Shown: positions 5,468-35,406 of the stretch, in pieces
How the letters are laid out: every line of letters begins with the position of its first letter
How positions within the stretch are numbered: position 1 is the stretch's first letter
IMG/VR virus record: IMGVR_UViG_3300035556_000130
Location: 6,281 to 70,280 of that record
DNA: 64,000 nt
Origin: a virus
Lineage: Duplodnaviria; Caudoviricetes
Strand: one strand, 5' to 3'
Notes under the pieces: generated by a model
The model's database searches: none
What the model was told of the DNA's origin: nothing
Seen by the model: only the letters and a program-made list of their open reading frames with translations
Position numbers and translations under genes: made by a program

Positions 5468-5468
5468 T

Positions 5469-14903: not shown

Positions 14904-14930
14904 TACTGTCACGACCGCTCCGGGGTGTAG

Positions 14931-17755: not shown

Positions 17756-18593
17756 TTTTCAACGCCTCCCTTGCTTCTTCTATTGAAGCATGCTCTCCTC
17801 TATAGAGAGATGCTGCAATCTTCATTTTATTCTTTTGGGGCAACCCATCCAGACGAGGATCTGCCATTACTTTTGAACTAAACTCGATCCAAGCGTTTTT
17901 CTTGCCAGGTTTTTCTTCTTCGGCGATTGCGGAGGTGCCCTGTACTTTGTCATAGCCAGCACTGAGGAAGTTTTCATCTATTACGCTCATGGTTCTGGTA
18001 ACCAGTTTTTTTACTTCTTCTTCGCATTCCGAGGAGCCGTGCTTGCACAGTGCTCGAACAAACTCGCCATGCGAGGCTACTATATCTGCATCGCCTTTGC
18101 AGATATCACATTGATTTGTGGCTTCTTCTATTCTGATCTTATCCACGAATTCATCTATGTTGCCGGTTTCTATCAATTTCAGAGCATCTATATAAGTCCC
18201 AGCTGATCTTATAAATGCCTCCTCAACATCTGCCGGTACGTTTCGGGTTTTCTGATATGAAATAGATCCATCGTTTGGTTTTGGCTTGCTTTTCTCAGTT
18301 GATGTTGCAGATGGTGTCGACGGTGTTGCTTCACCCCAGGGGGCCCTATGGTAATGTTTCAAATATGCCCCCGACACATAAAAGGCGCAGCCGCACATTT
18401 GATCAGGCGGTTCCTTTGCTGGGTCATTTATTCTTTTCAGCGCATCCTCACAGGGGCATTGCTCTGCATGTCCGCAAGGGCATCTCCCATCATTCTCGGC
18501 CAAAAGCTGCTCCCATTCTTGAGGAGACGTTCTTCCGTGAATAAAAATGCCGTTATTGTTAGCGAAGTCAATCAGGTCTTTGGCCGTGCTCAT
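17748..18593 (-). CDS. Protein with N-terminal ferredoxin-thioredoxin reductase catalytic-subunit-like domain
   Basis: LLAENDGRCPCG..QCPC...MCGCAFYV resembles the CPC/CPC/CHC pattern of FTR catalytic chains. Confidence 0.55.
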   Translation of the reverse strand: MSTAKDLIDFANNNGIFIHGRTSPQEWEQLLAENDGRCPCGHAEQCPCEDALKRINDPAKEPPDQMCGCAFYVSGAYLKHYHRAPWGEATPSTPSATSTEKSKPKPNDGSISYQKTRNVPADVEEAFIRSAGTYIDALKLIETGNIDEFVDKIRIEEATNQCDICKGDADIVASHGEFVRALCKHGSSECEEEVKKLVTRTMSVIDENFLSAGYDKVQGTSAIAEEEKPGKKNAWIEFSSKVMADPRLDGLPQKNKMKIAASLYRGEHASIEEAREALKNE

Positions 18594-19006
18594 ATCTGGG
18601 ACCCCGACTGAATCCTATAGAATTTTACGATCTTGGCTACATCTTCCGGCAATGTTTTTCCGGCACTTTCCATTTCGTCCGCCCATTTAAGAATTGCTTC
18701 GGTATTAGCTGCGTTGTGTGTCTTGGCAAAGTCTATCTGAGCCTGTATAAAGGCAGACGGATTGCTAGATGATTTTATTGCCATATATATTATTTCTGAG
18801 CCTTTCTTTATGGACTTAACGTCCTTGGCTATTTCCTCCATTTCCTTGCGGCATGCATTGCGCTCCGTTTCGTTGGGAACAAATTCACAGGCTCCCCTGG
18901 CAGAGTTCCAGGCAGTCATGATCTCTGGTACTAGGCACTGCACGCAAGGCTTGTCCTTGGCTTGTTCAGGCGTATCAGCTACATGTGGGTCTACGTTGTC
19001 TGTCAT
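18590..19006 (-). CDS. Hypothetical Cys-containing protein, 138 aa
   Basis: CVQC...C...C; coupled ORF. Confidence 0.65.
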   Translation of the reverse strand: MTDNVDPHVADTPEQAKDKPCVQCLVPEIMTAWNSARGACEFVPNETERNACRKEMEEIAKDVKSIKKGSEIIYMAIKSSSNPSAFIQAQIDFAKTHNAANTEAILKWADEMESAGKTLPEDVAKIVKFYRIQSGSQI

Positions 19007-19016
19007 ACTACCACCT

Positions 19017-19451
19017 TTATCTTTTTATATAATAATTCTTCCTAAGAGGCGGCAATGTCTCCGGCTCAACAAGGATTGCATTGCCATTGTTGATCGCGCT
19101 TATGAGATTAGCCAGTACAGAATCCGGAAACACCACTAATTCCACTTCACCTCTAGATATCAAATCTAACAGCTCTGCAACGATGGCCTCTTGCCGAACG
19201 TTTCCTGGCAGTTCCTGCGGTGCTTCTCCATCCCTGATAATACGATCTGCAATCAGGTGATACCTTGCAGACCAAGCCGCCGCGAAGTCGCCAGTTGCTA
19301 TTAGCATATCATCCACGACTCCATCATCATGAAAAAATCGTCGGTGATTTGGCCCTTCCTTGCTCATTATGTCCATCATCTGGTGGACGTGTGGAAACTT
19401 TCGTCCGATCAATATATCATCGATGTTATAATGGATTTCATGCTGTGGCAT
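19017..19451 (-). CDS. His/Asp-rich putative metal-binding hydrolase
   Basis: HE..H, PHVHQMMD, NHRRFFHD, YHLIAD. Confidence 0.5.
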   Translation of the reverse strand: MPQHEIHYNIDDILIGRKFPHVHQMMDIMSKEGPNHRRFFHDDGVVDDMLIATGDFAAAWSARYHLIADRIIRDGEAPQELPGNVRQEAIVAELLDLISRGEVELVVFPDSVLANLISAINNGNAILVEPETLPPLRKNYYIKR

Positions 19452-19714: not shown

Positions 19715-20911
19715 ATGCCGAGAAAACCAGGAAGACCATCATCTGACGAGATTTCAACGGAATCCGTAAGGCAGGCAAATGACGCATCAAAGATTGAGGT
19801 ACAGACCGAAGACAATGAAACAGCAAGATTGCTGAAAGAAGCAAATGCTATTTTGACACAATCTGCTAAAACTGATCTGCTGAAAGCAGCAGCAACCAAT
19901 GCAAAGAAGGCTGCTTTAGAAGCAAAAAGAGAAGCGGAAGAAGAATATGCCTCCGTGCGAGGCAAACCATCTGCAACAACAAGCTCTGGATTCAGATCAC
20001 TGCCAGAAGGATTTACTGCGGCTGATGTCCGTGAAATTGCAAGTGCACTGCCAGAAGAACAACGCGAGATGTTTATTAGGCAAGCACTAGGAATGCCAAC
20101 CGGCAATGGGTTGATGAATGCATTTATGCAGAGGACTCCAACTGCACCGCCTACACCAACCGCGCAAACCCAAACACCTCCATCAATGTCATTCCCGGAC
20201 ATGCTGCAAGGTATGATGGGATTGATGACGATGAGCATGCAGCTGGAGCAGAAAAAAGCTGAAGAATGGCGACAGCAGCAGATGTATCTTGAAGAGCAGC
20301 ATCGTCGTCGCGTTGAGGAGCTCCGGGAAGCCCGTGGGGAGATTATAGATAGAGGACCTGACCCAGCAGCAGAGGCATATAAACTCCAGATAGAATTGCT
20401 GAGAGAAGAATTAAAGACCAATCGTGAACTGCTTAAGGAAGCAATGACAAAACGAGAAGGTGGAGATTCATCTCTCGCGTTGCAGCAACAGATACTTGAA
20501 CTCACCCAAAAGAACCTCGATATCCAAAACCAAGCTCAGGAAGCCAAACTCAGGTCAATGGAATCTCAACTGCAACAAACCAGTCGTTTCAATATGAATA
20601 TTAATGACATTATTAAGCAGGCTCATGAAGCCGGAGCAAATCTCAGGGTTGGAGATGCTACGGATCTTCAACTGGCGAATGATCACGAATATAGGATGAA
20701 ACAGCTGGAGTTAGCCAATGAGCGAGATGAAAAGATTGCAATGGCAAAAGTTGAGGAGTTGAAAGCAAAACAAATGCAGGCACAGTCACAACAGGAGCTT
20801 ATAAAGACGATAGCCGTAGCAGTTGGTCAGCAGTTATTAGCCAAGCACGAACCAAAAGAGATAAAAGATTCTAGCGATAATGTGAAACGGTTAGTGGGGG
20901 CCGTCCAATGA
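19715..20911 (+). CDS. Gln/Glu/Met-rich coiled-coil protein (first gene of the structural block)
   Basis: 398-aa ORF with long heptad stretches; coupled to the following genes. Confidence 0.75.
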   Translation: MPRKPGRPSSDEISTESVRQANDASKIEVQTEDNETARLLKEANAILTQSAKTDLLKAAATNAKKAALEAKREAEEEYASVRGKPSATTSSGFRSLPEGFTAADVREIASALPEEQREMFIRQALGMPTGNGLMNAFMQRTPTAPPTPTAQTQTPPSMSFPDMLQGMMGLMTMSMQLEQKKAEEWRQQQMYLEEQHRRRVEELREARGEIIDRGPDPAAEAYKLQIELLREELKTNRELLKEAMTKREGGDSSLALQQQILELTQKNLDIQNQAQEAKLRSMESQLQQTSRFNMNINDIIKQAHEAGANLRVGDATDLQLANDHEYRMKQLELANERDEKIAMAKVEELKAKQMQAQSQQELIKTIAVAVGQQLLAKHEPKEIKDSSDNVKRLVGAVQ

Positions 20912-21267
20912 GTCTAAGCGAATTAGATCAGATTATTGCGGTTCATCTTGGGGCTATCGAAAAGTTCCCGAACGAAACGGAGATAAAAGCCGCTTTCCAA
21001 CAATCGATGGTCATGGGTTCTGACAATACGGTAAAATTTATAAAATCCATGAACATCTGGGAAGTTGCGAAGCCAGTGCTTCAAAATGCTATCAGTGACA
21101 TCCCAACGAGCGCAAATCCTGAAATAGCTGGACGGATATTTAACGTAATGGAAAAGATTTACCCAAAATTCATCGTTTCCATTGCAACGTCCCAGAAAAA
21201 GACGACGCATGCTGGTGAGATCATATCAAAGTTGATTAAGGAGATACGAGATGGCACTGAAAATTAG
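20908..21267 (+). CDS. Hypothetical protein, 119 aa
   Basis: ATGA coupling. Confidence 0.7.
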   Translation: MSLSELDQIIAVHLGAIEKFPNETEIKAAFQQSMVMGSDNTVKFIKSMNIWEVAKPVLQNAISDIPTSANPEIAGRIFNVMEKIYPKFIVSIATSQKKTTHAGEIISKLIKEIRDGTEN

Positions 21268-22072
21268 AAAAATATCGGATGAGAAATATGGGTTGGTTGA
21301 TCGCCCGTTTCGGGTTTATGAAGTACCCGAAGGAATTGGCCTTGATGAATATGCACTAGAGGATTACAGGCAACCTATTTCCTTTGACGGTAACAAGGTT
21401 CCCCTCACATATCTGCAACTGGCAAAAAATCCAGCCACTCGGAAATTCGTGCCGTTTGAAATTCTCTATGACGCCGAGGCATATACAGATGAGGATATAT
21501 TGGCAATCCCTACCCTTGGGCAAGTGGGCCAGACATGCTCATATTGCCAGGCCAGGAACGCAGGGGAAGAACTAATCAGCAAATTGCCCGCTATTCAGGA
21601 GTATCAACGACCAGTTGGAACCCCAAAGAAATTAGATTTGGGTGATGTGATCACGCCAAGCGTGATTCCTACTGCGGTTGACGTGTTCGCAAAAATATTT
21701 TGCCAGCCATTGGGGGAAGCACTCCTGAAAATTGGGGTTTCTGGGTTATCCTCGATAGCGGCTGGCTGGGCAGCAGAAGGCGGTACTCAGGAGGCATGGA
21801 GAAAAATCTCCGAGGATGTTGTCAGTGAATATAAGGTCTGTCCGACGGATATTCCTGCGTTTCAGCAAAACGTCCTGGCAATAAAAGAAGCACTTGATAA
21901 AGACAAGAAAAATATCATAGGTGCCTTGGCGACGGGCACTATAAAGAACTTTGGACAACTCGCAAAGGAGCATGGATTCGAGGTGTCGGGTGCTGCAAAT
22001 GCCCATTTCGCAGGACGAGCCTCAGTTGCTGTTGCTCCTATGCAACGTGGAGGAGGTCGAGCAATCGATTAG
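21251..22072 (+). CDS. Hypothetical protein, 273 aa, possible virion protein
   Basis: GGAG upstream, CSYC motif, moderately hydrophobic segment. Confidence 0.7.
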   Translation: MALKIRKISDEKYGLVDRPFRVYEVPEGIGLDEYALEDYRQPISFDGNKVPLTYLQLAKNPATRKFVPFEILYDAEAYTDEDILAIPTLGQVGQTCSYCQARNAGEELISKLPAIQEYQRPVGTPKKLDLGDVITPSVIPTAVDVFAKIFCQPLGEALLKIGVSGLSSIAAGWAAEGGTQEAWRKISEDVVSEYKVCPTDIPAFQQNVLAIKEALDKDKKNIIGALATGTIKNFGQLAKEHGFEVSGAANAHFAGRASVAVAPMQRGGGRAID

Positions 22073-22078
22073 ATTCGC

Positions 22079-22294
22079 ATGGATCAGACAACTTTGAATC
22101 GGGTAACAAATATACTGCGGAGCCGAAACATAACCGCATCAGATATCAGAGCAGCTAATGAAACAATTGCTGCAAATGGTCTCCGAATCAGTGAATTACA
22201 AACTGCTCTGTACTTCGCGAATAACGGAGACCTTCAGCAAGCTCGGGTTATGGCTGGGAGGGCAGCAGATGTATTAAACAGATTGCATCGTTGA
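22079..22294 (+). CDS. Hypothetical helical protein, 71 aa
   Basis: ORF following 22072, convergent with the RHH gene. Confidence 0.6.
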   Translation: MDQTTLNRVTNILRSRNITASDIRAANETIAANGLRISELQTALYFANNGDLQQARVMAGRAADVLNRLHR

Positions 22295-22459
22295 CTATTC
22301 CAAGGCCAACTTCATTCGTTGTTTGGGCATGCTGGGGTTGGCCTTCAACCAGGCTTCAACCATCGTTCGCAGTTCCTCGCTCATTTTCTTTTTCTTTGCG
22401 ATACATCGCGTATGAAATTCCATACCGGAATCGTCTGGTATTTCGAAAGTTATTCGCAT
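22295..22459 (-). CDS. Ribbon-helix-helix (CopG/ParG-like) regulator
   Basis: MRITFEIPDD..MEFHTRCIAKKKKMSEELRTMVEAWLK. Confidence 0.7.
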   Translation of the reverse strand: MRITFEIPDDSGMEFHTRCIAKKKKMSEELRTMVEAWLKANPSMPKQRMKLALE

Positions 22460-22557
22460 ATTCAGCAATTGGGCTTTTAGAATATATGCTTTTCGGAAAA
22501 TGACAAAAAACACTTATATATAAAAAAAATGTTTTATTTATCGGCCAATCGGCCAGG

Positions 22558-23748
22558 ATGAAAAACATGGTTAAAGGCTTTGGAAGAATGACTTTGAATT
22601 TTAAGTATCCATTCTCAGTAGTGGGTACTACAGCCGGAGCATCCATCCAGTGTGGGGATGACCCTGCATATGTTTGGGAGCACGGCCTGGAAAGATATAG
22701 CAAGCCCTGGGAAGTAGCACCCGACATGGTAGCCGAACTTGAAGGTATTGAGGTTGTCGGCGGAGTGGACGCATTCGGAAGGCGCGTACCAATTAAGCGA
22801 ATAGTACCAGTGATTGCCGGAAACGATATCGGGGAGAACATATCTATAAATGAGCACATGGCTCCTGCCCTGAGAGACGGGCCAAACGATCCCAGCTATC
22901 CATTCAGAGACCGTCTGGCATGCATAAACTTCGGCAAGGCCTTGCTTATGGGCGGCGGCGCAAACACGACTTCGATCAAATTGAGTCCTTCTGACACGCT
23001 CAATTTCAAAATCGAGTTTCCAACCGTCGCGCATGGCGGAGATGCAGTAATAAATTCTGACATCGAAATCAAGGCTCACCTGGCATTCGCGAAGGGCGAA
23101 GATCAGATGCTGAATGCTCTGAGATCATCCCCAGTTGCCGAAGTCGCGACAGCTGCGGCCAACAATCAGATCAGGCAGTACGAAGTCCTTGGCGACCTGG
23201 AAATCTCTGATGTTATTACCCCGCAGGTAATAGATAAGTCCGTTCCTGCAACCATGGATTGGTGGTCCAGTCTGAACATGGGCCTGAATGCAGACGATCC
23301 CCAGATAAAGAGGATTATTACCTACACCAAGAATAACCAGGCAACAACCCCCAATCAGGAGATGGAACTGGTTAGAGATGGTCAGTATGTGCAGGTTCCA
23401 TTCCAGAACTTCCGCTGGGTAGCAACCGACAAGAAGTTTTATCGGTTCACGCATGTAGGAGTTATCCCCCATGCCAACATGTTCCAGGTCAAGTTTGACA
23501 ATGGAAACAGCAGATTCCCCATGATCTTCAACTGCGAGCCCAATGACAATCCCTTTGTCATGCCGCAGCAGAGCCTGGTGGCCGATATCAGACGCGGTGG
23601 GCCTACTGAGCTACCAAGAGCATACACCCTGATGAAGGGCATAGGATCTGTGAAGGTAACCGATAACGGGGTATCAATCCCTGCATGGGCTGCCGGTGTC
23701 AGAGGCTTCGAAATTGCCCTTTGGGGATATGAGTACACTTTGCAGTAG
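22558..23748 (+). CDS. Candidate major capsid protein, double jelly-roll-like
   Basis: 396 aa, beta-rich, AT-rich promoter upstream, heads a run of structural genes; NNQATTPN / THVGV / TDNGVSIPA motifs recalled from euryarchaeal tailless-virus capsid proteins; not verified by search. Confidence 0.5.
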   Translation: MKNMVKGFGRMTLNFKYPFSVVGTTAGASIQCGDDPAYVWEHGLERYSKPWEVAPDMVAELEGIEVVGGVDAFGRRVPIKRIVPVIAGNDIGENISINEHMAPALRDGPNDPSYPFRDRLACINFGKALLMGGGANTTSIKLSPSDTLNFKIEFPTVAHGGDAVINSDIEIKAHLAFAKGEDQMLNALRSSPVAEVATAAANNQIRQYEVLGDLEISDVITPQVIDKSVPATMDWWSSLNMGLNADDPQIKRIITYTKNNQATTPNQEMELVRDGQYVQVPFQNFRWVATDKKFYRFTHVGVIPHANMFQVKFDNGNSRFPMIFNCEPNDNPFVMPQQSLVADIRRGGPTELPRAYTLMKGIGSVKVTDNGVSIPAWAAGVRGFEIALWGYEYTLQ

Positions 23749-23758
23749 GTGATATGAA

Positions 23759-24532
23759 ATGTTCGCATTATTTCCAATAAATTCCGTTGGACTGACAACG
23801 GTACAAGGTATTCCCGCATACTGGGTAAGACTCCCTCCTGGATCTAAGCCCATTCGGGATATATATACGGGTGCCACCCCAGCGGCCACGGATGGAAAAG
23901 GGGTCGTTATGATGGCCCTCGGGGTTCAGGAATCACTCGTAATCGACGACTGTGAAGATGCATGGGATGAGGACGTTCCCGCAAATTATACGGTGTCCCT
24001 GGATGCCACCGATAAGATGGTGGGAACCTCCTCCGTAAAGGTGGATATTACCGCCGCCGGCGCAGCTGGCACCATCCTATGTGAGGTAGTTGCACCAGGC
24101 ACAGCATTGCCAAAATTCACCCATCTGGAATTTTGGATCAAATGTTCCGTGCCTACTACTGCTGGAGATCTCCAGATTCTGCTGGACGATACCGCCAAGT
24201 GCGCCTCCCCGCTGGAAACTCTCAACGTGCCTGCCCTGGTAGCAAATACCTGGACTCATGTCAGAGTTGCACTTGCCACCCCACAGCTTGATTCCGCCAT
24301 CATTTCGTTGGGCCTCAAGTACAACGTGGATATTGGCGCATGCACAATTCATCTGGATGATTTCAGGGCTGTTCGTTTAGCAACCAAGGCCATACCTCTC
24401 CAGGTGTCCCAGTTCGTCCAGGACGATGTATATCTGGCACTGTCCGAGGCTGTAGATACGGCATATAACCAAAATGCTGTCTTGCTGGTATATTATACCA
24501 GCCCGGATGAAGATCCGACTTGCAGCAATTAG
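23759..24532 (+). CDS. Putative vertex/spike protein with carbohydrate-binding-like beta-sandwich
   Basis: VIDDCED..W...FTHLEFWIK...WTHVRVAL...IHLDDFRAV jelly-roll lectin pattern; directly follows the capsid candidate. Confidence 0.55.
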   Translation: MFALFPINSVGLTTVQGIPAYWVRLPPGSKPIRDIYTGATPAATDGKGVVMMALGVQESLVIDDCEDAWDEDVPANYTVSLDATDKMVGTSSVKVDITAAGAAGTILCEVVAPGTALPKFTHLEFWIKCSVPTTAGDLQILLDDTAKCASPLETLNVPALVANTWTHVRVALATPQLDSAIISLGLKYNVDIGACTIHLDDFRAVRLATKAIPLQVSQFVQDDVYLALSEAVDTAYNQNAVLLVYYTSPDEDPTCSN

Positions 24533-24550
24533 AGGGAATATATTCCCTCT

Positions 24551-24775
24551 TTATTTTTTTATAAAATTGAATAATGTTGCTCTAATGTCTCTTGTAAGGC
24601 TATCCACATCCAGATTGCCGTTCATCTTTGGCGGAAACACAATCAGCACCCCATGATCTAGAAGTTGCAGATCATCACCGGCCTTTACATTATGTTGCTT
24701 GGTCCACGCAGCTGGCAAAGTTATCCTTTTCGACCCACCACTTGGGATCGCCTTCACAGTTCTGAACATTGGCAT
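24551..24775 (-). CDS. AbrB/MazE (SpoVT)-type DNA-binding protein
   Basis: GGSKRITLPAAWTKQHNVKAGDDLQL. Confidence 0.8.
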   Translation of the reverse strand: MPMFRTVKAIPSGGSKRITLPAAWTKQHNVKAGDDLQLLDHGVLIVFPPKMNGNLDVDSLTRDIRATLFNFIKK

Positions 24776-24903
24776 AATAATACCACTATGTTCCTATTAT
24801 ATAACATTGTTGAACAAGGCTATTAAATAAAAATAATCCGATTGAACATTGTACTACTTTATCCCTCACTTATTTTTATATTAATCCATTGAAAGTGCTT
24901 GTT

Positions 24904-25977
24904 ATGACAGCATTCGCAAACTTGGCTTACGCCAGGTATCCAACGGAGGTACTGCCTGAAGTATTCAGGATAAACGTACCTGTCGATAGTATGGAAGTTG
25001 CACGATACGAAAACTTTGGAAAGAGACTGATCGAAATTCGGAACATGGTATCCACAAGACCGGCTGCAAACCCAGTGGAGACTCTTGTGGCTACTGACAA
25101 GTCTGACGAAGCTTTGAGATTATATTCAGCCGCTCAGGGTGGAGTTTGGAACGAGGACGCTCCTGCAATCTCCAATAAAACACGGGCTTCAACATATGCT
25201 TACATTCGCCAGCGAAGCATCGGAGGCGCAGAGGCTAATATCATTACCCGCTATCACGTTGTTGCCAGAAATTACAACATGCTAGACCTCTATCGTTGGG
25301 GTGTCAAAGACCCAGAGACTGCTCTGAATCTCATAGAAAGTAGACTGGACGACGACGCCAGAACGAGAATCCTGGAAAAAGCCAACCTTGTTGAAAGGGC
25401 CTTAATAGGCAATCTTCCTATCCACCAGGATCTTTTGAATCCATCTATCGAAGAGCAGTTCGAGGATGTCAAAGAGATATCTCGGCAAATTCCCGGACTT
25501 GCCGCAAATGGCGGATCGCATGTTCTATCCGGGTCCTGGATACGGGTTCCTCCTGGGTACGTAGCAGTTATCCTCGGTGTGGGGGTTGACGCGGCCCAGG
25601 TTAGAAACAACCTTGGTGCAGGTGCGCTTGATCCTTATGACGCCTGTCACATATTCATCAGCAGGGACGACTTGATTAACTATGTCAGAATGGATGCCGC
25701 CGCGATGCCATCTGGAGTTGCAGGGTCACCAGATATTGATATGCGGATGTACATCCCAGCCTGCCAGAAGTTCCAAATAGAAATCAGAAACAACCACGCC
25801 GTCAACGCGATCGCAGCAAATCTTCGGCTACGTGTTCGATATGGCCTGCGAAAAATGAGCATCATAGATCACCAGAAATGGGGCATCCCGTATGCAACAG
25901 ATGTTGAGCAAGCCGCTGCCAACGCGCTGATCGAAAAACATCAACTTAATGATCTGATCTACATCGGCGAGATGTAA
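24904..25977 (+). CDS. Second candidate capsid protein with an internal duplication
   Basis: About 357 aa, beta-rich; two RY..(N/S)(M/I).D..(R/K)WG units; own AT-rich promoter. Confidence 0.45.
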   Translation: MTAFANLAYARYPTEVLPEVFRINVPVDSMEVARYENFGKRLIEIRNMVSTRPAANPVETLVATDKSDEALRLYSAAQGGVWNEDAPAISNKTRASTYAYIRQRSIGGAEANIITRYHVVARNYNMLDLYRWGVKDPETALNLIESRLDDDARTRILEKANLVERALIGNLPIHQDLLNPSIEEQFEDVKEISRQIPGLAANGGSHVLSGSWIRVPPGYVAVILGVGVDAAQVRNNLGAGALDPYDACHIFISRDDLINYVRMDAAAMPSGVAGSPDIDMRMYIPACQKFQIEIRNNHAVNAIAANLRLRVRYGLRKMSIIDHQKWGIPYATDVEQAAANALIEKHQLNDLIYIGEM

Positions 25978-25987
25978 GGAGGAATCC

Positions 25988-26359
25988 ATGCTTCAATATA
26001 GGCATGTACCATTTGCAATATTTCGTCAAGTATGCGGTGGGGTAGGTGAAGCGGGCCTCCGTCGATACGACATAATGAAAGGCGAGGATGGGTTAGCCGG
26101 CCTGGGAGTGCCTGCTAAAGCCATCACCATCATAAACCATGGACCTGGAATCCTGTATTACCAGTTATCCTCGAACGGAAGAGATGTATCCGTGGTTGAT
26201 GGGATCGACTCGGGTCAGGGTAAAGCTTATCCACCTGATGAGGCGGCATATACCGCAATAGTCAGTGTTTATTCTGACAACGCTGCAACCTCTTTCTCGA
26301 TCATGGCTTCACCTGGCGTATGGACCGAAGAGGAATTTATTGAGCTGATGGAGGCATGA
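25988..26359 (+). CDS. Small beta-rich putative structural protein
   Basis: GGAGG upstream; KAITIINHGPGILYYQLS pattern. Confidence 0.6.
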   Translation: MLQYRHVPFAIFRQVCGGVGEAGLRRYDIMKGEDGLAGLGVPAKAITIINHGPGILYYQLSSNGRDVSVVDGIDSGQGKAYPPDEAAYTAIVSVYSDNAATSFSIMASPGVWTEEEFIELMEA

Positions 26360-26360
26360 A

Positions 26361-27395
26361 ATGCCAACCATAATTCAGACAACCATCAGGGCCGACATAG
26401 ACAGTATGTTCCTGAGCAGAGACGCCGGTGGAACTCTATTCGTAGATAAAGAATTCGCAGGAGCTACCGATGACAATGATGGACTCTCGGCAACTTCCCC
26501 CAAACTAACCATAACGGGAGCCATAGCAGCAGCTGGATCTGGGTGGCGCATCAGAGTGGCACCTGGAAGCTATATTGAAAACATTGTAGTTCCAACTGGG
26601 TATGAAGGTCTGATAATTGAAGGCCGAGACAGACTCGGGGCCAATCGAACGACTCTTAGCCCCGCTTCCGGTATTCCAGTCGAAATAAATTCCAACAATG
26701 TTGAAATATACAACATGGAGATCATTGCCGGCCTCCCAGCCCCCGGCGACACTCATAACACCGCGCTCTATCTTACAGGCCTAAACCATAAGATTCATGA
26801 CCTGTCAATCATCGGAAATAGCGCCAATTGCTGGGGCATTTGGATTGATGATGCCGATTTCGCAGACATACATGACTGTTACATAGACGGCAGCTATAAT
26901 GAAAACGGTATCGGCATATTCGTAGGAAACGACTCGATAACCTGCAAAATTTATAAAAACCACATAACTAAGTGGGGTAGCGGAGCAGGTGACGGCGGCA
27001 TTAAAAACGGATACGGTATAGGGCGGCATATAAATGCCCAAAGAACATTGATTATGGAAAACGATATTCTTGACAACTTCGTCGGGATTTACTACTATCC
27101 GCCAACTGGCGAAACCGATATTGAAGGCGACTCCATAGTTCACAATAACTTTGCGGAGAACTCATCATACGACATCTACGACACCCATGATTATCCCAAA
27201 TCTGCAATCAACATTGATAGCAACTTTTATGGGTATTCTACGGGAGGGCTTCTCTGGTACGCCGATAACAATGGAGATAATGTTGCCGATTCGATCATAT
27301 TTTGCGGGACTAACCGAGATAGGCATCCCCTGGCTGGGCCGCATATATGGCGCGGAGTCGTTGGCGGTTTGCCGAGGTTCGGAGGGTTAATATGA
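26361..27395 (+). CDS. Parallel beta-helix (pectin-lyase-like/NosD) adhesin or depolymerase
   Basis: LTITGAIAAA...IRVAPGSYIENIVV entry motif followed by GI.I..N repeats. Confidence 0.8.
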   Translation: MPTIIQTTIRADIDSMFLSRDAGGTLFVDKEFAGATDDNDGLSATSPKLTITGAIAAAGSGWRIRVAPGSYIENIVVPTGYEGLIIEGRDRLGANRTTLSPASGIPVEINSNNVEIYNMEIIAGLPAPGDTHNTALYLTGLNHKIHDLSIIGNSANCWGIWIDDADFADIHDCYIDGSYNENGIGIFVGNDSITCKIYKNHITKWGSGAGDGGIKNGYGIGRHINAQRTLIMENDILDNFVGIYYYPPTGETDIEGDSIVHNNFAENSSYDIYDTHDYPKSAINIDSNFYGYSTGGLLWYADNNGDNVADSIIFCGTNRDRHPLAGPHIWRGVVGGLPRFGGLI

Positions 27396-27485
27396 AGAAA
27401 TTTAAAAACACCGAAAAGGGCAAACCAGGTGAAACTCTGGGTATTTTGAATACCGTTCCAGTGCCAATTAAGATAGAGGAGGAGA

Positions 27486-28946
27486 TTGATGATGATAACG
27501 GGAATTGAACCCTTCAACGTTCTCCCCAGCAAGATTACGGCCAATGATAGCTTCTACAATGACTCTGGGCTTTGGGATGACCCAGAACTACATGGAACCG
27601 GTTTTAATCGGTTTGCGGGTTATATGCAAGCCATCCACAACATCGGCGGAGGAACCGGATTGTCATACCTCCAGGCAACCCAGAGATTCGGTGCCCAGAT
27701 GACATTCGAGGTTGCAATGAGCTTGCCTTCTTTCGATCCAGCAAGCAACGATCAAATATCTGGTATCCGACTCTGGGTAAATGATAACAACTGGTTCATA
27801 CTGGGGGCCGAGATCAACGCTGGAAACCAGTCCGCAGCCATGCTTAGATACAAGATTGCGGGAACTGAAAATGTAGCCCATTTTCCGACCCATGCTGAAG
27901 ATGCAGTTCGTAGCAATCTGGACACACTACGTCGAAAATACAGAATCGATGTACTAAGCGATCACTTGGTTATATATGTCAACGGAATCAAGAGGTTCGA
28001 CATAAAAACAGATGCGTCCGTGCCCATGCTGAACTACTATTTCGAATTGGTAGCCGGCACGACCGACAATACCAAGGCATTCGAAGTACATTTCCGAGAC
28101 GTGGTGTTCAGGAACGAAATCATTTCGCCGGATAGTTACCCTGCCAGAATAAGCGGGTCAATTACGCTAAACAACACGACCCCCGTCGAAATGATTTTTG
28201 AGGATAAAATATCTGGAGACGTATATGAAGTAGTACTGCGAGCCGACTTGGACGAGGCTTATATGCCTGCGGCACATCGACTAGATTCCCCAGACTCATA
28301 TACGAACATTACAGCAGAATGTAACGATCTGACAACTGGAATGGCCGTTTTGTTACCGGGCATTCCGGCATCAGGCGACGCAGTGATATTTGGCGCGCCA
28401 GAGAAATTTGACCACATCGATGTCTATATGGATGGAGGAGCCTCCAATATAGACAATGAATTCAATGTGCTATATTGGAACGGTACAATCTGGGCAGCGC
28501 TTGCGGTCACTGATGGTACAAATGGGGGGATTGCTGGAAGAACATTTTATGAAAATGGCAGGATATCGTTTGTACCGCCAGCTGATTGGGCCCAGGTTGC
28601 TGTAAATGGGGTCACCTGTTATTACGTATCGGTCAGGGTGACAACTGCCGGGGCCAGCGTCCCAGTAGCCACACATATCCAACTAGGATTAGTTAATCAC
28701 AGTGGGTTTGATCATGCTGCGGCTTTCTTAAGCACATTGGAAATAAAAATGTTTAAAGGATTTACTGGCATTGGCTATACCCGATTTTATATGGATGCAA
28801 TGTCATACCGGCAATGTGTTGGTGAGCGTAATCCTGAAATCAATGGGTGGAGGTGTGACGGGAATGCGAAAGTAACATTCCAGTTATCGAAAAACCCGAC
28901 AAAACCAGTCGTTGTTCCGTATTACGCTTTTACCAGGAGGCTATGA
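27486..28946 (+). CDS. Putative adhesin with concanavalin-like beta-sandwich domains
   Basis: Aromatic beta-rich; FNVLYWNGTIWAALAVTDGT...GRISFVPPADW...YYVSVR. Confidence 0.6.
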   Translation: MMMITGIEPFNVLPSKITANDSFYNDSGLWDDPELHGTGFNRFAGYMQAIHNIGGGTGLSYLQATQRFGAQMTFEVAMSLPSFDPASNDQISGIRLWVNDNNWFILGAEINAGNQSAAMLRYKIAGTENVAHFPTHAEDAVRSNLDTLRRKYRIDVLSDHLVIYVNGIKRFDIKTDASVPMLNYYFELVAGTTDNTKAFEVHFRDVVFRNEIISPDSYPARISGSITLNNTTPVEMIFEDKISGDVYEVVLRADLDEAYMPAAHRLDSPDSYTNITAECNDLTTGMAVLLPGIPASGDAVIFGAPEKFDHIDVYMDGGASNIDNEFNVLYWNGTIWAALAVTDGTNGGIAGRTFYENGRISFVPPADWAQVAVNGVTCYYVSVRVTTAGASVPVATHIQLGLVNHSGFDHAAAFLSTLEIKMFKGFTGIGYTRFYMDAMSYRQCVGERNPEINGWRCDGNAKVTFQLSKNPTKPVVVPYYAFTRRL

Positions 28947-30679
28947 TGGGTGTAGTTTCTTCAAGAAGCGCTGGAAAAGTAGACAAATTGTCTACTCGAC
29001 GAATTGATGAAACCCTTTATATCGGCAATGTTAGTGGGCTGGTTAATAACCAGACCATTAATATTCATCCGATAACACTCTTGGAAAAAAACCCGGCCCA
29101 ACTCATGGCAACAATAATGTCTGATCCAGTCGGCCAGATGATTGGCAAATGGGTTGAAAAAGAAGTTGGTGCAAAGGGGCTTCAAATCTGGTCCAAGCTA
29201 AGCGGCATAACCTCTTCGATAAGTAGCCGGGATATTACACTGTTCGAAAGTTCAAAGGATTTTCGAAAAATACGGGATCTAGGGGTGATGACACTGCCAG
29301 CCCAGATTACCAACGAGGATACTAAAATAGCAGTCACCGGGTTGGGAACACAATCCATAAATCTTGTTTCCAATATCAAGTTTGGTGATGGGCTATATGC
29401 AGGATATGCATTATATCCTCCCTCTGGAAAACATATCTACATTTCACCAGAAGGACGAATATGCCTATTCATGGCATTTGATTATGGCGGACTACATAAT
29501 CCAGTTGAGTTGTTCATATATTCCGATGACGGCGGAAAAACATGGACTTGGCAGCGTATCGATTCGTCCAATGATCATTTCCAAGATCAGGGATCGTTCT
29601 GTGCTGATTATTATGGCAATATACATTTCGTATGGAGAGAAGCCATCACAGCCGATGACAAAAGAATCAAATATCGAAAATGGAATGCCAAAACACAAAG
29701 TTTTGGTAACGTAATTACGGTCAGCAGCGCGACCGGGGTTATAGCCATTTGTCCAACGGTTCAGCCGACTCCGATTGGAAACACGGTAGAAATATTATGG
29801 GCAAGCGAAGGATATGCAAACGATCCAAATTATTACCAGCTACTGATCAGGGAAGTCAAAGCCGACGAGACATTGGGAACACTTTATCAACTGACTTCTG
29901 ATGGCGCACTGACTCATCGATATCTTTATTATACATTTGACTACGATTCCCAAGGTTACCGGCACATAGTTGCAATCGCCAAAAATCACACCACTAACCC
30001 AGACCCAGGAAATATATGGTATATTCGGCAAGCTCCTAGTGGATGGCAGCCAAAGGTGCAGATAAATACCGAAGCAGGAGACGCAAATCTGGCGCACTAC
30101 GTGTCGAATTTGGTAATCAATAGGCACGATGATATATATATCGCATATGATATAGGAACATTTGACGTAACTGCTAAAAATCCTTTATACATTAAACGAA
30201 TAAGAGATGGAATTATCAGTTCTAGGGTATTGGTTGAGGCTGGCAATCCAGGAGCCGGGGGAACCGTTCCTCTAATTCAAGTTGATAGCATCGACCGGAT
30301 ATGCGTCGTATATGCCAGCAATACAGCTCCAGATTCGTATTCGATACGAACAGTAAGTAGAATGTTGACCGAAATAAGTAGCCGGCAGATCATACACATT
30401 CTTGCAGCTGATCAAGAAATGTCATATATTCAGATACCGTGGAGCATCCCTCCTAATATTCAAGGGGTGAACCCAAATGTTCCGATGCAAGGTATGATTA
30501 TGATGATCGCAAAATATGCAACAGGTATTCCCGGAATAGCAGATGTGCAGATTCATTACAGCGGAAACAGCGTTTTCGGAGCAGCTGCAACCCCTACCAA
30601 ATTGCTGACCAGATCATATAATATACGAGGCATAGCCAATCGAACAAAATTCAACGCAGGGTTTAACCCGGTGATATGA
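28943..30679 (+). CDS. BNR/Asp-box beta-propeller (sialidase-like) protein
   Basis: YSDDGGKTW Asp-box; repeated D..G..H(I/F)V(W/A) blades. Confidence 0.75.
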   Translation: MMGVVSSRSAGKVDKLSTRRIDETLYIGNVSGLVNNQTINIHPITLLEKNPAQLMATIMSDPVGQMIGKWVEKEVGAKGLQIWSKLSGITSSISSRDITLFESSKDFRKIRDLGVMTLPAQITNEDTKIAVTGLGTQSINLVSNIKFGDGLYAGYALYPPSGKHIYISPEGRICLFMAFDYGGLHNPVELFIYSDDGGKTWTWQRIDSSNDHFQDQGSFCADYYGNIHFVWREAITADDKRIKYRKWNAKTQSFGNVITVSSATGVIAICPTVQPTPIGNTVEILWASEGYANDPNYYQLLIREVKADETLGTLYQLTSDGALTHRYLYYTFDYDSQGYRHIVAIAKNHTTNPDPGNIWYIRQAPSGWQPKVQINTEAGDANLAHYVSNLVINRHDDIYIAYDIGTFDVTAKNPLYIKRIRDGIISSRVLVEAGNPGAGGTVPLIQVDSIDRICVVYASNTAPDSYSIRTVSRMLTEISSRQIIHILAADQEMSYIQIPWSIPPNIQGVNPNVPMQGMIMMIAKYATGIPGIADVQIHYSGNSVFGAAATPTKLLTRSYNIRGIANRTKFNAGFNPVI

Positions 30680-31062
30680 TGGTCATTGATAACGAACGTC
30701 GGCTGGCAACACTCAGGGAGATACTAGACAGCATATACCTAGATGCATCACAATCGCATTCCGATGGGACTACGCCATGCGACCTAACCATCATATTTAC
30801 AGCATTGGCAACTCTTACGGTGAGTTATGAAGATGTAAAAGAGGATGTAGGATCACTAAAAGATGACATTGGGTCACTAAAAAACAGCATAGAAAAAGTA
30901 CAGACCGAGCTGCATGACCTAGCCACTACAATCAAAGTATGCGATGCTGCTAATCAGGGAAAAAAAGCAGTCTGGATGGCGGTGATCGCCTTTTTTTCAG
31001 GTGGCCTAGGATTGGCACTGATCAAATGGGTGTTCGATACATATTTGAAGGTTGCAGTATAA
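30676..31062 (+). CDS. Coiled-coil protein with C-terminal membrane helix (holin/XhlA-like)
   Basis: Heptads then AVWMAVIAFFSGGLGLALIKW. Confidence 0.6.
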   Translation: MMVIDNERRLATLREILDSIYLDASQSHSDGTTPCDLTIIFTALATLTVSYEDVKEDVGSLKDDIGSLKNSIEKVQTELHDLATTIKVCDAANQGKKAVWMAVIAFFSGGLGLALIKWVFDTYLKVAV

Positions 31063-31065
31063 AAA

Positions 31066-33228
31066 ATGATGGAGACGATCTATATGGATAGACCAACAAA
31101 AAGAAAAATAGACTGGCGATGGCAGGAACGAATCGGTATTGCAGATAAAAAAACAATGGACGGAGATCAATCTGTCTATTTTAACCGGCTTATGGATCTT
31201 GGAGATCCAATTGAAGATTACGATGCTGTTAACAAAAAATACGTAGATAACACATTTGGCGATGGCGAAGTGATAGTTGTAATTGGAACTGTTGAAGATC
31301 TTGAGGATATGGATTTCGATCCAGCTGATTTTACGGGATCAGATGCAGATGCTGTGATGGCAGTACATTTGGCCACTTATAACCACACTGATATTCATCC
31401 CAGCGACATCATAGCCGGGGACGTCGTAGACGTTACTGGAAAAAATATTAATGATGTCCTCGCATGGAATGGTTTAAAGTGGGTTCCTTCTATCGGTGCT
31501 GTAGGTCCTATCGGTCCACCTGGCCCAACCGGTGCAACAGGACCAGCCGGTGCAACAGGACCAGCCGGTGCAACAGGACCAGCCGGTGCTATAGGTCCTA
31601 CCGGACCAACTGGCCCAGCCGGTGCAAATGGCATGTCTGACGTGGTTGCCGTATATCAAAAAGAGGGATTGGTTATTGCCAAGTCTATTGATGGTACTAC
31701 AATCTTTTCCGGCAATGTCGGTATTGATGACCTAGCTGCTCTGCATGCTGCGCGAGATTATTGCCACACGTATTATCCAGATGGTGCGACTATTGCCGTT
31801 CTCAATGGTAATTATACCATAACCACATTCGAATTTCTGTATAGCAATCTCACGTTGTACCTGAAGAAAGGTGTCGTTATACAGGGCAATACCACTTTAG
31901 CATCTTATCCTGTTCATGTGTACGGATTTTATTCGTACACTGAGAATTATGTCAATCGGTCAATGTTTTGGGCCCAAGATGTATCTAATATTGGCATAGT
32001 CGGTGAGGGTGAGATAGATGGCAATGGTGAACATCCCAATTTTAATGTGCCTGATTTACTTGTTCGCCCGTTCATCATCCGTTTTTGCAATGTCAGCAAT
32101 TTCACTGTTGGTGGTGTCGATGGACATCTACAGTTATATAATGCTGCTATGTGGACAGAGCATTATTTGCATTGCTCAGATGGTCTAATATCCAAGCAAA
32201 TTATAAATACCAACAAATACGGCCCAGGTACTGGCGATCGCAACGCAAATCTCGATGGCATAGATGTTGATTGCTGTACGAATGTTGTTGTGTCTCATAT
32301 TAATGCAATCACCGGTGATGATGCCATATGCCTCAAGGCGTCCGGTCCTGCTGATTGCGTTAACATATCAGTTTCTGATTGTGAATTGTCATCCGCTAAA
32401 ACTGGTTTCAAGCTTGGTACTGAAACCAATGGCGGATTCCAGAATATATCAGTGTCCAATCTCAATATATGGTGGTCCACTACTGGGGTCGGTGTATCAA
32501 CTGTTGACGGTGGTAATACATTCAATGTTAATATACATGATATCAATATGTATAATGTTGGCACGCCGTTCTATGTCCGACTTGGTATTAGAAATCGATC
32601 ATATGGGCATGGTTCAACTGTTACTACTGTTTCCAAGATGCGGAACATCAGTATTCATGATATTTCCGTTGTCGGGCAATTAAATCGGTATCATACGTCG
32701 TATATTAGTGGATATGACGCTTCAGCAGATGGTAGACTATTTGGAGTGTCCGTATCGAATTTCAAGATAATGGACGCACCCGGCGGGGGAACCGAAGCCG
32801 AAGCCTATATCATTCCATTGGAACTTGCAGATTCCAATCCAAATGAATATATGTTTGGGACACTCCCAGCACATGGTCTATATGTTCGACATGTCCATGA
32901 CTCCAATTTCCACAATCTTGTGTTAAATCGCGTTCTCACTAATGATGATCGACCTGGTTTGGTGATGTCGGACGTAGGAACTTCTACTCTCCGTGGTGTT
33001 AATACTCAACGTGGAACTAATAATCCTGGTAGGGTGTACTTATCCGATTGTAGTCGCGTCAGTGTATCAAAGGTATCCGGTTCGTCTGGTTATATGTTTC
33101 GTATCACTGGCGTCAACACTAATGACCTTTTACTACTTGGAAATGATTGTTCCGGTAGTTGTACTCTTACAGTACTTGGTGATGAGGTCACCCCTGCTGA
33201 AGTACGAGCAGCACATAACCCTGATTAA
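31066..33228 (+). CDS. Fibre/spike protein: collagen-like linker plus GH28-like beta-helix
   Basis: About 14 Gly-X-Y triplets; [24 protein letters not shown] are glycoside hydrolase 28 motifs. Confidence 0.85.
31529..31589 (+). repeat. 18-bp tandem repeat (CCGGTGCAACAGGACCAG x3 plus 7 nt) encoding collagen triplets
   Basis: Three perfect copies at 31529, 31547 and 31565. Confidence 0.95.
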
Positions 33229-33502: not shown

Positions 33503-33934
33503 CTATACCCCGAGGTACTTTATCAGATTGGTTTCATGAATTGGGACCCAGTAACTGCCCATCTTTTCAGCTATCGGGAAGGATACCGGATCATTCATCC
33601 ACTCTGGATCAGCCTTGGTCTTGGATCTGGTTGCGCGGTCACCCTTGAAATAATGCAGTTTGACATGGACGACTCGTTCATTCCTCTTGACGATAACCTT
33701 TCTTCTACCAGCTTCCCGGAGGATAATGTCTTTGATACCTCTGTTTGCAGCCTTCAGAGCAGCCTGCCGGGGTGCCCTCCCGGTGTATCGTCCGACATCA
33801 TTTCCATCCATGCTCATCAATATAAAGTTTCTCTTCTCGACTCCCTCTATAGGCTTCTTTGCCACGGGTGCCTTCTTTACCGGCTGCTTCTTGGCAGCCG
33901 CCTTCTTTGCGCTCTTAATTTTTTTCATTTTCAA
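33503..33934 (-). CDS. mc1: MC1-family chromosomal protein with Lys/Ala/Pro-rich N-terminal extension
   Basis: KRNFIL..DGNDVGRYTGRAPRQAALKAANRG..DIILRE.G...DPEWM matches the MC1 signature. Confidence 0.9.
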   Translation of the reverse strand: MKMKKIKSAKKAAAKKQPVKKAPVAKKPIEGVEKRNFILMSMDGNDVGRYTGRAPRQAALKAANRGIKDIILREAGRRKVIVKRNERVVHVKLHYFKGDRATRSKTKADPEWMNDPVSFPIAEKMGSYWVPIHETNLIKYLGV

Positions 33935-35406
33935 ACCTCGTTCAACCAGTTTTTGATCATCGCCCCATGCTCGGGGGTGATTTTGATATTTGGGCTATCC
34001 TCAAAAACCATTGTTCGGTCTTTGGTAACCCGCGCCACGTGGGTATCTGCATCAACTTCTAATGCAATTGATACCTCATATTCGATACCCTCCCTAAAGA
34101 TTGGCCCCATGCCCATCTTTTTGGGAGTCATTCCTCGCTCCCCATGGACCAGCTCATACTGGGTCTTGGCCCGCGTGGTTAAGATCACATGCATGTTGCA
34201 GGCCAGGATTTTTTCGATCAGCTTGGCGTGCAAGGGTGTTATGTCTTTCCAGGCGGTATAGGAGTTGCCGGTCCTGCTCGCAGCTGTGGCAGCAGCGTGC
34301 ATATCCAGCAATCCGCCTTCAGCAGTCCAGGCATGCGTCAAAGAGTCCAGAATCAAAACCTTCGCGCCAGCTTTTTCAGCCAGGTCTATGGCCTCCAAGT
34401 ACCTCTTTGGCGAATACGGCGCATCGAGAACGATGGTTTTATATTGCCCTATTTTTATTTTGTCAACCTTTCGGCCAACATACAGCGATCCAGATCGGTG
34501 CTCCGTGTCCACGATAAAAATCTTGGACCAGTCTGGTTCTAGACCATATCCTAGCAGGAGAGCTCCCAGTGTCTTGCCAGCCCCAGCCGGAGCAGATATG
34601 AGAATCTTGATAAATGCCATCTGACGACTGGCGTCCTCAATCTTCAGCTCACTGGAGACTGGCACTTTTTTAACAGGGGCCGCGACCGGAGGTTTGGTGA
34701 TTGGAACAGTTGCCGAAGGTTGTTTGGCTGACTCCCCGTTGAGGATGCGTATATAACCCGTCACGTCGGAAATTATTGTCCCGTTGGCAAGAACCTCCAC
34801 GGTGCCAAATTCCCCGCTCATGACTAAATGCTCAAGGTTCTCTTCGATCACTTCAAGACCACGCTTCTTTCCCCGAAGCTTCATTAGCTTGTAGCATTCC
34901 GGAAGAACCTTGCCGGTTTTATCGCATTCTGGCCGGATATCCGGCAATTCTTCCTCTTCAGGGGGGGCCGGCTCGATAGGCGCGTCGGGCGGATCATTGG
35001 ACTGTGCCTTCTTCGCGCGTTCGGCATCCTCTGCCGCTTTTGTGCCCCTGGGAGCTCTTCTGGGTTCTGTGGCTTCCTTTTCAACCGGCAATTCGGTCTT
35101 TTCTGTTTTTGCCGGGCGACCTGGTTTCTTCTTAGGTGGCTCTGGTTCTTCCTTGTTGGCCTCTTCCAAAGCAGCCCTAAGATAGCCGGAAAAGTGTCGG
35201 CGGATCTTGGAAAGCCTCATTATCTGGTCATCGTCGGTCTCATCGAGAGGTTCTACTCTCCTGAGATTTGCTATTCCATCCTCTGATTCTTCGAGGACTA
35301 TTGTGCCGTCATCGGTTACGAACGTTGCAGAGGTATCCGTGAACTCTACTGCAATTTCGAATTCCGCCCCGTATTTTCGCACAATGTCAACTAACGTATC
35401 TCTCAT
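33931..35406 (-). CDS. AAA_24 / Sak4-like recombination ATPase with a long N-terminal extension
   Basis: APAGAGKT Walker A, IFIVDTEHRS, LILDSLTHAW..EGG, HVILTTRAK..Y, GIEYE. Confidence 0.85.
   Translation of the reverse strand: MRDTLVDIVRKYGAEFEIAVEFTDTSATFVTDDGTIVLEESEDGIANLRRVEPLDETDDDQIMRLSKIRRHFSGYLRAALEEANKEEPEPPKKKPGRPAKTEKTELPVEKEATEPRRAPRGTKAAEDAERAKKAQSNDPPDAPIEPAPPEEEELPDIRPECDKTGKVLPECYKLMKLRGKKRGLEVIEENLEHLVMSGEFGTVEVLANGTIISDVTGYIRILNGESAKQPSATVPITKPPVAAPVKKVPVSSELKIEDASRQMAFIKILISAPAGAGKTLGALLLGYGLEPDWSKIFIVDTEHRSGSLYVGRKVDKIKIGQYKTIVLDAPYSPKRYLEAIDLAEKAGAKVLILDSLTHAWTAEGGLLDMHAAATAASRTGNSYTAWKDITPLHAKLIEKILACNMHVILTTRAKTQYELVHGERGMTPKKMGMGPIFREGIEYEVSIALEVDADTHVARVTKDRTMVFEDSPNIKITPEHGAMIKNWLNEV

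Follow-up and report, generated by a model that had tools for sequence, protein, structure and literature searches.

A probable large tailless double jelly-roll virus of the methanogen Methanothrix

Prokaryotic viruses with double jelly-roll (DJR) capsid proteins are described as small (PMC10848233). Here we analyse a 64,000-nucleotide window of DNA, which comprises bases 6281-70280 of the single 70,280-bp IMG/VR record IMGVR_UViG_3300035556_000130, and in particular its plus-strand structural block at 19715-33228 (coordinates are window positions unless marked as contig bases), where a protein of 396 amino acids (aa) encoded at 22558-23748 is predicted to adopt the DJR fold. We consider that this DNA probably belongs to a large tailless DJR virus of Methanothrix; fold and gene context suggest that the particle has no tail and that the 396-aa protein serves in the capsid, and a mode of packaging is proposed tentatively.

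Tectiviridae and Corticoviridae (PRD1 P3, PR772 and PM2 P2) infect bacteria, unlike the virus considered here. Their genomes measure 10-15 kb and are replicated by a protein-primed or rolling-circle mechanism, and they encode an FtsK/HerA-type ATPase along with numerous small membrane proteins. In contrast, the present genome is 70 kb long, carries a replicative PolB and a PrimPol-helicase, shows no such ATPase and has few predicted membrane proteins. Turriviridae, represented by STIV with the major capsid protein (MCP) B345 and the penton/turret protein A223, likewise have an archaeal host, but this is a thermoacidophile for STIV and a mesophilic methanogen here, and STIV encodes the packaging ATPase B204, whereas none was found here. 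Moreover, no sequence similarity to STIV was detected by tblastn against phage records or by profile search of PDB sequences, and Turriviridae genomes measure 16-17 kbp (PMC11316562), compared with about 70 kb here. Coyopavirales (Chaacviridae and Ixchelviridae) of ANME-1 archaea have methane-cycle euryarchaeal hosts, as in the present case; their MCPs are unrecognisable by sequence and the DJR was identified only through AlphaFold2 modelling (PMC9894754), which is also the route followed here. Chaacviridae have uniform 10-11 kb linear genomes and a protein-primed PolB (PMC9894754), while the present lineage has about 70-84 kb, terminal direct repeats and a replicative-type PolB. The two are set apart by description only. 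SPV1 (Portogloboviridae) has no packaging ATPase and its DNA is wrapped in protein, which resembles the MC1-based condensation proposed below, and its capsid protein is among the best single-barrel matches found here. However, SPV1 has single jelly-roll capsid proteins and a genome of about 20 kb, whereas two barrels are fused in one chain in the 396-aa protein.

A word-based homology search with the 396-aa protein retrieved a tight family only (57-95% identity). When the profile of this family was run with HMMER over 1.84 billion representatives, 58 were retrieved, the most divergent at about 20% identity. The AlphaFold2 model, for which 48 family sequences were aligned, has a predicted local distance difference test score (pLDDT) of 93.2 and a predicted template modelling score (pTM) of 0.92, and consists of two eight-stranded barrels (about residues 8-180 and 204-394) joined by helices, so that the protein is predicted to have a full-length DJR fold. 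When the model was compared with the PDB using Foldseek, PM2 P2, PRD1 P3, PR772 and the capsid proteins of an iridovirus and PBCV-1 ranked first, with a probability of 0.93-0.99 for the top capsid proteins (0.97-0.99 for PM2, PRD1 and PR772) and template modelling (TM) scores of 0.3-0.39. The top structural matches are PRD1 P3, the STIV MCP, PM2 P2, the PBCV-1 MCP and cellular GH172/DUF2961 proteins, followed by the poxvirus scaffold, the PBCV-1, PM2, phiCjT23, faustovirus and FLiP capsid proteins and a few non-viral tandem-barrel enzymes. Residues 6-396 align with the capsid proteins at a root-mean-square deviation (rmsd) of 4.3-4.7 Å, as against 5.4-6.0 Å for the glycosidases. In BFVD, a tectivirus capsid protein is among the matches, and some 'minor tail proteins' are among the weaker ones; a protein-atlas feature search gave clusters in which a minority of members bear PRD1 P3 Pfam domains, which is taken as a lead only. 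GH172/DUF2961 proteins are recognised cellular relatives of DJR capsid proteins (PMC8812541), and the pattern of structural matches is, as far as the model goes, that expected of a DJR protein. Although GH172/DUF2961 proteins have the fold in common with the 396-aa protein, they fit at the higher rmsd given above, none of the 48 family members matches any Pfam model (DUF2961 and the glycosidase families included), and the gene lies in a viral structural module, not in a carbohydrate-utilisation locus. No solved structure was matched by the family profile among PDB sequences, and no tblastn match was obtained among 50,697 phage records; judged by these searches, this is a new sequence family. 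In metagenomes it is represented by two 90%-identity clusters of 224 and 267 member sequences. For the kingdom Bamfordvirae (class Tectiliviricetes for the prokaryotic members), a DJR MCP is one criterion, and the fold of the 396-aa protein corresponds to it, with the capsid role suggested by context. Further traits of this kingdom are a single jelly-roll penton (minor capsid) protein and an icosahedral virion that lacks a tail and usually has an internal membrane.

The initial annotation, made without database searches, had proposed a jelly-roll fold for both the 396-aa protein and a 357-aa protein encoded at 24904-25977. This stands for the former as a full DJR, whereas the latter gave a weaker two-sandwich model that is not a canonical DJR. 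Built with twenty homologues of 56-89% identity, the 357-aa model has a pLDDT of 65.9 overall and 75-91 in the C-terminal domain, with beta-sandwich domains at residues 1-125 and 184-318 and helices between them. Its Foldseek matches are two-sandwich proteins (vicilins, CUB-EGF-CUB and Cry protoxin), but the global TM is poor. Among DJR capsid proteins, none extends over the two sandwich domains of the model, and a profile-profile comparison of the 357-aa and 396-aa families detected no relationship. Therefore, the 357-aa protein is regarded as a candidate jelly-roll-type vertex or minor capsid protein, not as a second MCP. No tblastn match to it was found among the same phage records, nor did its family profile match any PDB sequence.

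The 119 bp at the two contig ends (first versus last bases) are identical, because of which the record is taken as a complete genome of about 70.16 kb that is terminally redundant or circular. In IMG/VR it is listed in the class with direct terminal repeats (DTR), with a CheckV completeness of 100%. Thus, a genome previously placed only above 64 kb can now be given as complete at about 70.2 kb. Pfam models were scanned against the 12 open reading frames (ORFs) of the block, against those of the 6.3-kb flank and, in the rest of the genome, against the larger ORFs and 44 small ones; PHROGs were scanned against most of the larger ORFs and NCBIfam against ten proteins; in addition, six-frame profile searches for Terminase_6N, Phage_capsid, FtsK_SpoIIIE and Pox_A32 were run on this genome and three complete relatives. 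The hallmarks of Caudoviricetes are an HK97-fold MCP, a large terminase, a portal and a maturation protease (PMC10848233), and none of them was found by the ORF profile scans or in the six frames of the four genomes. At the sensitivity of profile hidden Markov models (HMMs), the ORFs scanned, those of the flank included, gave no match to a terminase, portal, protease or HK97 capsid, nor to a tape measure, sheath or tail tube protein, and the six-frame searches were empty in all four complete genomes except for one 11-bit Walker-A match inside an AAA_24 gene of a relative. These results bear out the earlier statement that terminase, portal, HK97 and tail genes are missing from the 64 kb. A search of the 6.3-kb flank for terminase, portal, HK97 capsid or FtsK/A32 ATPase genes, which had been set beforehand as a test that could overturn the jelly-roll reading, also detected none, and the packaging ATPase that was not visible in the window was not detected across the whole genome at the sensitivity used. 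The fold of the two beta-rich proteins had been set as the other such test, and it did not overturn the reading either.

When every ORF was searched for Walker-A motifs with strict and relaxed patterns, P-loops were seen in an XPD-like helicase and the AAA_24 protein, a degenerate one in the PrimPol-helicase, and a few incidental matches in non-ATPases. The AAA_24 gene and its neighbour are as follows:

33931-35406, minus strand: 491-aa protein with an AAA_24/Sak4-type RecA-like ATPase as its C-terminal half (Pfam AAA_24, 2.8e-17)
33503-33934, minus strand: viral MC1 chromatin protein, extended at its N-terminus by a basic segment (Pfam MC1, 7.1e-19, among the 44 small ORFs)

The 491-aa protein also matches phrog_1366 (2e-71) and a Sak4-like profile (3e-9) and has a low-complexity N-terminal extension of about 250 aa. 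No other strict Walker A motif in the genome stands in a plausible ATPase context. Stand-alone proteins of 235-268 aa that are homologous to the AAA_24 domain are abundant, and their profile matches RecA and no FtsK, HerA or terminase structure; judged by its family, the protein is a Sak4/RecA-type recombination protein. It was considered as a packaging ATPase and ruled out, since the domain is a common stand-alone phage protein with a profile matching RecA. The MC1 gene lies directly downstream of the AAA_24 gene, and the pair is kept in all three complete relatives (G001-G003). Here it occupies 33503-35406 on the minus strand, abutting the end of the structural block, and in two of the relatives G001 60881-62820 and G003 24828-26653. 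That MC1 condenses the genome for encapsidation is suggested with low confidence.

The block and its neighbouring genes were compared with the locus L005 in G001, a 77-kb complete close relative, and with three distant relatives whose MCPs are only 29-32% identical, namely L015 (an 84,188-bp contig), L013 (a 42,604-bp contig) and L011 (a 10.8-kb fragment). The twelve plus-strand genes of the block, with the adjacent minus-strand genes, are:

17748-19451, minus strand: three genes of 281, 138 and 144 aa without Pfam or PHROG match, oriented divergently to the structural block
19715-20911, plus strand: 398-aa protein heading unit 1, reading as coiled-coil-rich with a disordered N-terminus; candidate scaffold or internal protein by its sequence
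20908-21267, plus strand: 119-aa protein, weak match to its L013 counterpart
21251-22072, plus strand: 273-aa conserved core protein directly upstream of the capsid gene, no P-loop, no family match
22558-23748, plus strand: 396-aa protein heading unit 2
23759-24532, plus strand: 257-aa accessory protein after the capsid gene, no family match
24551-24775, minus strand: 74-aa small regulator, AbrB/MazE-like, between units 2 and 3
24904-25977, plus strand: 357-aa protein heading unit 3, two jelly-roll-like beta-sandwich domains
25988-26359, plus strand: 123-aa conserved small protein, no family match, kept after the 357-aa gene in L011 and L015; candidate penton by size
26361-27395, plus strand: 344-aa right-handed beta-helix spike (Pfam DUF1565, 2.7e-5; PHROG tail fibre, 1.4e-6)
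27486-28946, plus strand: 486-aa protein conserved in L015, no family match
28943-30679, plus strand: 578-aa protein with the Asp-box motif S-x-D-x-G-x-T-W read from its sequence
30676-31062, plus strand: 128-aa protein with a single C-terminal transmembrane helix (hydropathy scan)
31066-33228, plus strand: 720-aa fibre (Pfam Collagen, 2.7e-7; Glyco_hydro_28, 1.4e-12)

Long intergenic regions precede 19715, 22558 and 24904, and each contains a TATA-like box that lies roughly 25-45 nt before the start; the internal genes have GGAGG-type ribosome-binding sites; hairpin and T-run motifs follow 24532 and 33228. It is plausible from these motifs that three TATA-led units drive the block. Two beta-rich proteins had been said to head transcription units of their own; both are predominantly beta in the AlphaFold2 models, and the units are plausible from the TATA-like boxes. 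Family matches within the block are of three kinds only, a DUF1565 beta-helix, collagen with a GH28 beta-helix, and PHROG tail fibres, the last running through the beta-helix N-terminus or the collagen repeats. The 720-aa fibre combines collagen triple-helix repeats with a GH28/pectate-lyase-type beta-helix, and its many PHROG tail-fibre matches are all through the collagen segment, while the L015 counterpart of the 344-aa spike is annotated as a Pel9A-like beta-helix. The 578-aa protein, which matched no family and no PDB sequence, is possibly a beta-propeller glycan-binding or hydrolase spike, to judge from its motif. These three proteins correspond to the spike/adhesin genes noted earlier downstream of the beta-rich proteins.

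Close relatives, in which the capsid protein is 78-96% identical, include complete genomes of 69,328, 75,893 and 77,180 bp, two of the three with direct terminal repeats. In the distant relatives the order of genes is conserved, upstream as the giant protein, the SNase-PEGA protein and three small minus-strand genes, and in the main part as three genes encoding about 400, 120 and 275 aa, then the MCP and the two-sandwich protein, followed by the small protein and the beta-helix spike; this order is pooled over L015, L013 and L011, and no one locus has every element. The giant protein (3,590 aa in L015 versus 3,147 aa here) stays beside the morphogenesis module despite about 30% MCP identity, and L015 1-3963 is the counterpart of the giant protein/SNase-PEGA region. 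The 281-, 138- and 144-aa genes have BLASTP counterparts at the same relative position in all three distant relatives, and the 273-aa protein has phmmer/BLASTP matches in them. The 398-aa gene keeps its size and position there, but only L005, from the close relative, matches it in sequence. The 257-aa gene is absent in L015, reduced to 124-127 aa in L013 and tandemly duplicated in G001 (L005 11195-12790), so that its product looks like a fast-evolving one; such variability is as expected for an accessory decoration or binding protein, for which it is a candidate. Pfam MazE_antitoxin matches one of the 44 small ORFs, assigned to 24551-24775 by reading its sequence, and a MazE-annotated counterpart occupies the same position in L011 (8657-8890), on the opposite strand upstream of the operon of the two-sandwich protein; the gene may be a conserved regulator of late genes. 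Furthermore, a more distant MCP-like protein occurs on a 46.8-kb virus-like contig, where no tailed-virus hallmark was seen in the 21 kb read. Two distant MCPs used as queries found no related loci in IMG/VR. From the contigs of these distant relatives and their lack of hallmarks, the lineage is thus regarded as broad, consistently large-genomed and consistently without Caudoviricetes markers. In L013, radical SAM/SPASM, methyltransferase and WbmS-like genes come after the capsid gene (11977-14600), and the parallel locus L014 (5427-8045) has, further along, genes for sugar-nucleotide enzymes (an epimerase and a DegT-like aminotransferase). Glycan modification may thus occur in part of the lineage. 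The literature searched gave no description of these viruses, the 2023 compendium of methanogen viruses not being covered.

In the larger ORFs elsewhere and in the 44 small ones, the domains matched comprise PolB, Prim-Pol, AAA_24, SNase, PEGA, TnpB, radical SAM and Mtd, together with MC1 and glutaredoxin, MazE-like and HTH domains and a PolB-like exonuclease. The genes concerned here are:

3741-3968: 75-aa protein with two hydrophobic helices (hydropathy), no PHROG match, outside the conserved module
5469-16736: giant 3147-aa protein and divergent SNase-PEGA gene
53778-55110, minus strand: TnpB (IS605 OrfB-type) element (Pfam OrfB_IS605 and Cas12f1-like_TNB)
55697-58279, minus strand: PrimPol-helicase with the degenerate Walker A G-T-T-G-R-G-L-K-T
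6.3-kb flank: reverse transcriptase (RVT_1) of a diversity-generating retroelement (DGR) and two small ORFs without family match
6.3-kb flank: XPD-like helicase (Helicase_C_2; PHROG DNA helicase, 3.5e-75)
6.3-kb flank: N-terminus of PolB
Contig bases 4099-5562, minus strand: 487-aa protein, no family match, sequence reading as a right-handed beta-helix

The PolB, primase-helicase, recombination gene and DGR named by the initial annotation were all located, as PolB, the PrimPol-helicase, the AAA_24/Sak4-like protein, an Mtd-like target and the reverse transcriptase. By tblastn among the 50,697 phage records, PolB is closest to tailed haloarchaeal viruses (27-28% identity), and the PrimPol-helicase has no match. 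The giant protein matched neither PHROGs nor PDB sequences. The beta-helix-like flank protein lies between the helicase and PolB, distant from the structural block.

The host is most likely Methanothrix, as judged from sequence. The TnpB element is 82-90% identical in amino acids and 84-89% in nucleotides to multicopy elements of Methanothrix/Methanotrichaceae metagenome-assembled genomes, the next best archaea showing 29-42%, and at least 10 related loci occur in one 3.6-Mb Methanothrix/Methanotrichaceae chromosome; on these identities it appears to have been exchanged recently between virus and host and to mark the host directly. The euryarchaeal nature of MC1 (a control search matches Methanosarcina and Haloferax) also fits a host in this part of the Euryarchaeota. 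Thus, the methanogen host proposed earlier is supported and narrowed to one genus. The MCP was not found in five Methanothrix genomes, and a distant MCP-like ORF (29% over 127 residues) was found on a contig of one of 105 Methanotrichaceae genomes, a match that also agrees with this host; the virus is therefore probably not a common provirus.

Several observations weigh against a tailless DJR virus. An FtsK-HerA superfamily ATPase for genome packaging is present 'in most cases' in DJR viruses and is a criterion of Bamfordvirae (PMC10848233), and none was detected in the four complete genomes. The sole classical P-loop outside the helicases is that of the RecA/Sak4-like AAA_24 protein. Convincing transmembrane helices were predicted in only four ORFs by the hydropathy scan; few small membrane proteins are encoded, whereas PRD1-like viruses have many. 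The 357-aa model is of middling confidence, and its matches are within the range common for unrelated beta-sandwiches. The assignment of the 396-aa protein as capsid protein rests on its modelled fold and gene context, and its tie with cellular DJR enzymes leaves residual doubt. An alternative is that the virions are of some other type, novel or unrecognised, whether pleomorphic, spindle-shaped or made of another protein. The 396-aa protein would then be a surface glycan-binding or glycoside-hydrolase protein related to GH172/DUF2961 and one among several carbohydrate-active spikes of the block. The missing packaging ATPase and the richness of the block in carbohydrate-active folds (DUF1565, GH28 and Asp-box) would agree with it, and the 75-aa protein has the size and hydropathy of spindle-virus capsid proteins, which are small, highly hydrophobic and alpha-helical, but this protein has no PHROG match and lies outside the conserved module. 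Moreover, none of the 48 members of the 396-aa family matches DUF2961 or any glycosidase family in Pfam, capsid proteins fit with lower rmsd over more residues, and the gene heads its own unit at a fixed position beside other jelly-roll proteins, its match being among the strongest between the distant relatives. We consider this possibility unlikely.

It is decidedly improbable that the virus is a head-tailed archaeal member of Caudoviricetes whose HK97 capsid protein, portal and terminase have diverged past profile-HMM detection, with the jelly-rolls serving as tail, baseplate or decoration proteins. A large terminase needs a P-loop, and the scans show only helicase, RecA-like, degenerate and incidental ones; no head or tail hallmark appeared in the ORFs scanned or in six frames of the four complete genomes, no tape-measure, tube or sheath gene was matched, and the full-length matches of the 396-aa protein are DJR proteins, not tail proteins. 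This is to be set against the size of 70 kb, a PolB nearest to tailed haloarchaeal viruses, a DGR with an Mtd-like target and the collagen and beta-helix fibres, which are all typical of tailed viruses, as well as the 'minor tail proteins' among the weaker BFVD matches and the atlas look-alike clusters labelled Uroviricota. A non-viral, plasmid-like or other extrachromosomal element of Methanothrix bearing surface-protein genes would explain why no packaging enzyme was found, and it would agree with the possession of its own replication genes (PolB, PrimPol-helicase and helicase) and a mobile TnpB element. However, it is very hard to reconcile with a DJR protein set within a conserved module with fibres and spikes, with a DGR and its Mtd-like target, and with relatives in IMG/VR, direct terminal repeats and a CheckV completeness of 100%; no conjugation or partition gene was detected in the Pfam scans, and the close capsid family (the 90%-identity clusters) is not integrated in the five Methanothrix genomes, the distant MCP-like ORF occurring in one of the 105 Methanotrichaceae genomes. 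We give it very little credence.

For the large tailless DJR virus, which we prefer, the block at 19715-33228 would be the morphogenesis module of a complete double-stranded DNA virus of about 70.2 kb. As in PRD1, STIV and PM2, the shell would be icosahedral and tailless, and its pseudo-hexagonal capsomers would be trimers of the 396-aa protein. With less certainty than this step, the conserved downstream genes might provide the five-fold vertices and host-binding or glycan-degrading spikes, made up of the 357-aa, 123-aa, beta-helix and Asp-box proteins and the collagen/GH28 fibre. As for the entry of DNA, our best guess is that the conserved viral MC1 condenses the genome and the shell assembles around or alongside it; alternatively, a motor could be supplied by the host or be unrecognisable. 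The fuller proposal, that a Methanothrix DJR lineage expanded to 70-84 kb, lacks an FtsK-HerA motor either through loss or from the outset and encloses an MC1-condensed nucleoprotein in its shell, is put forward tentatively and is rather doubtful as a whole.

The genome is four to seven times larger than those of small tailless DJR viruses such as PRD1 and STIV, and large genomes were previously thought to be a eukaryotic development of the DJR capsid lineage. If the proposal is true, a 70-84 kb archaeal lineage with its own gene set (PolB, primase-helicase, recombinase, chromatin protein and DGR) shows that the same type of shell carries a large genome in prokaryotes, several times the size of any described prokaryotic DJR virus and a prokaryotic counterpart of the eukaryotic expansion of DJR genomes. 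A further question is then how the DNA enters the particle when the usual motor is missing, and packaging of an MC1-condensed genome, if true, would be unlike both the PRD1-like and the tailed-virus routes. Among acetoclastic methanogens, Methanothrix is one of the most important in digesters as well as in wetlands and rice paddies, and to our knowledge no virus of this genus has been isolated so far; the present lineage would give the first molecular handle on Methanothrix viruses. Since the capsid family is common in metagenomes, these viruses may therefore matter for methane production.

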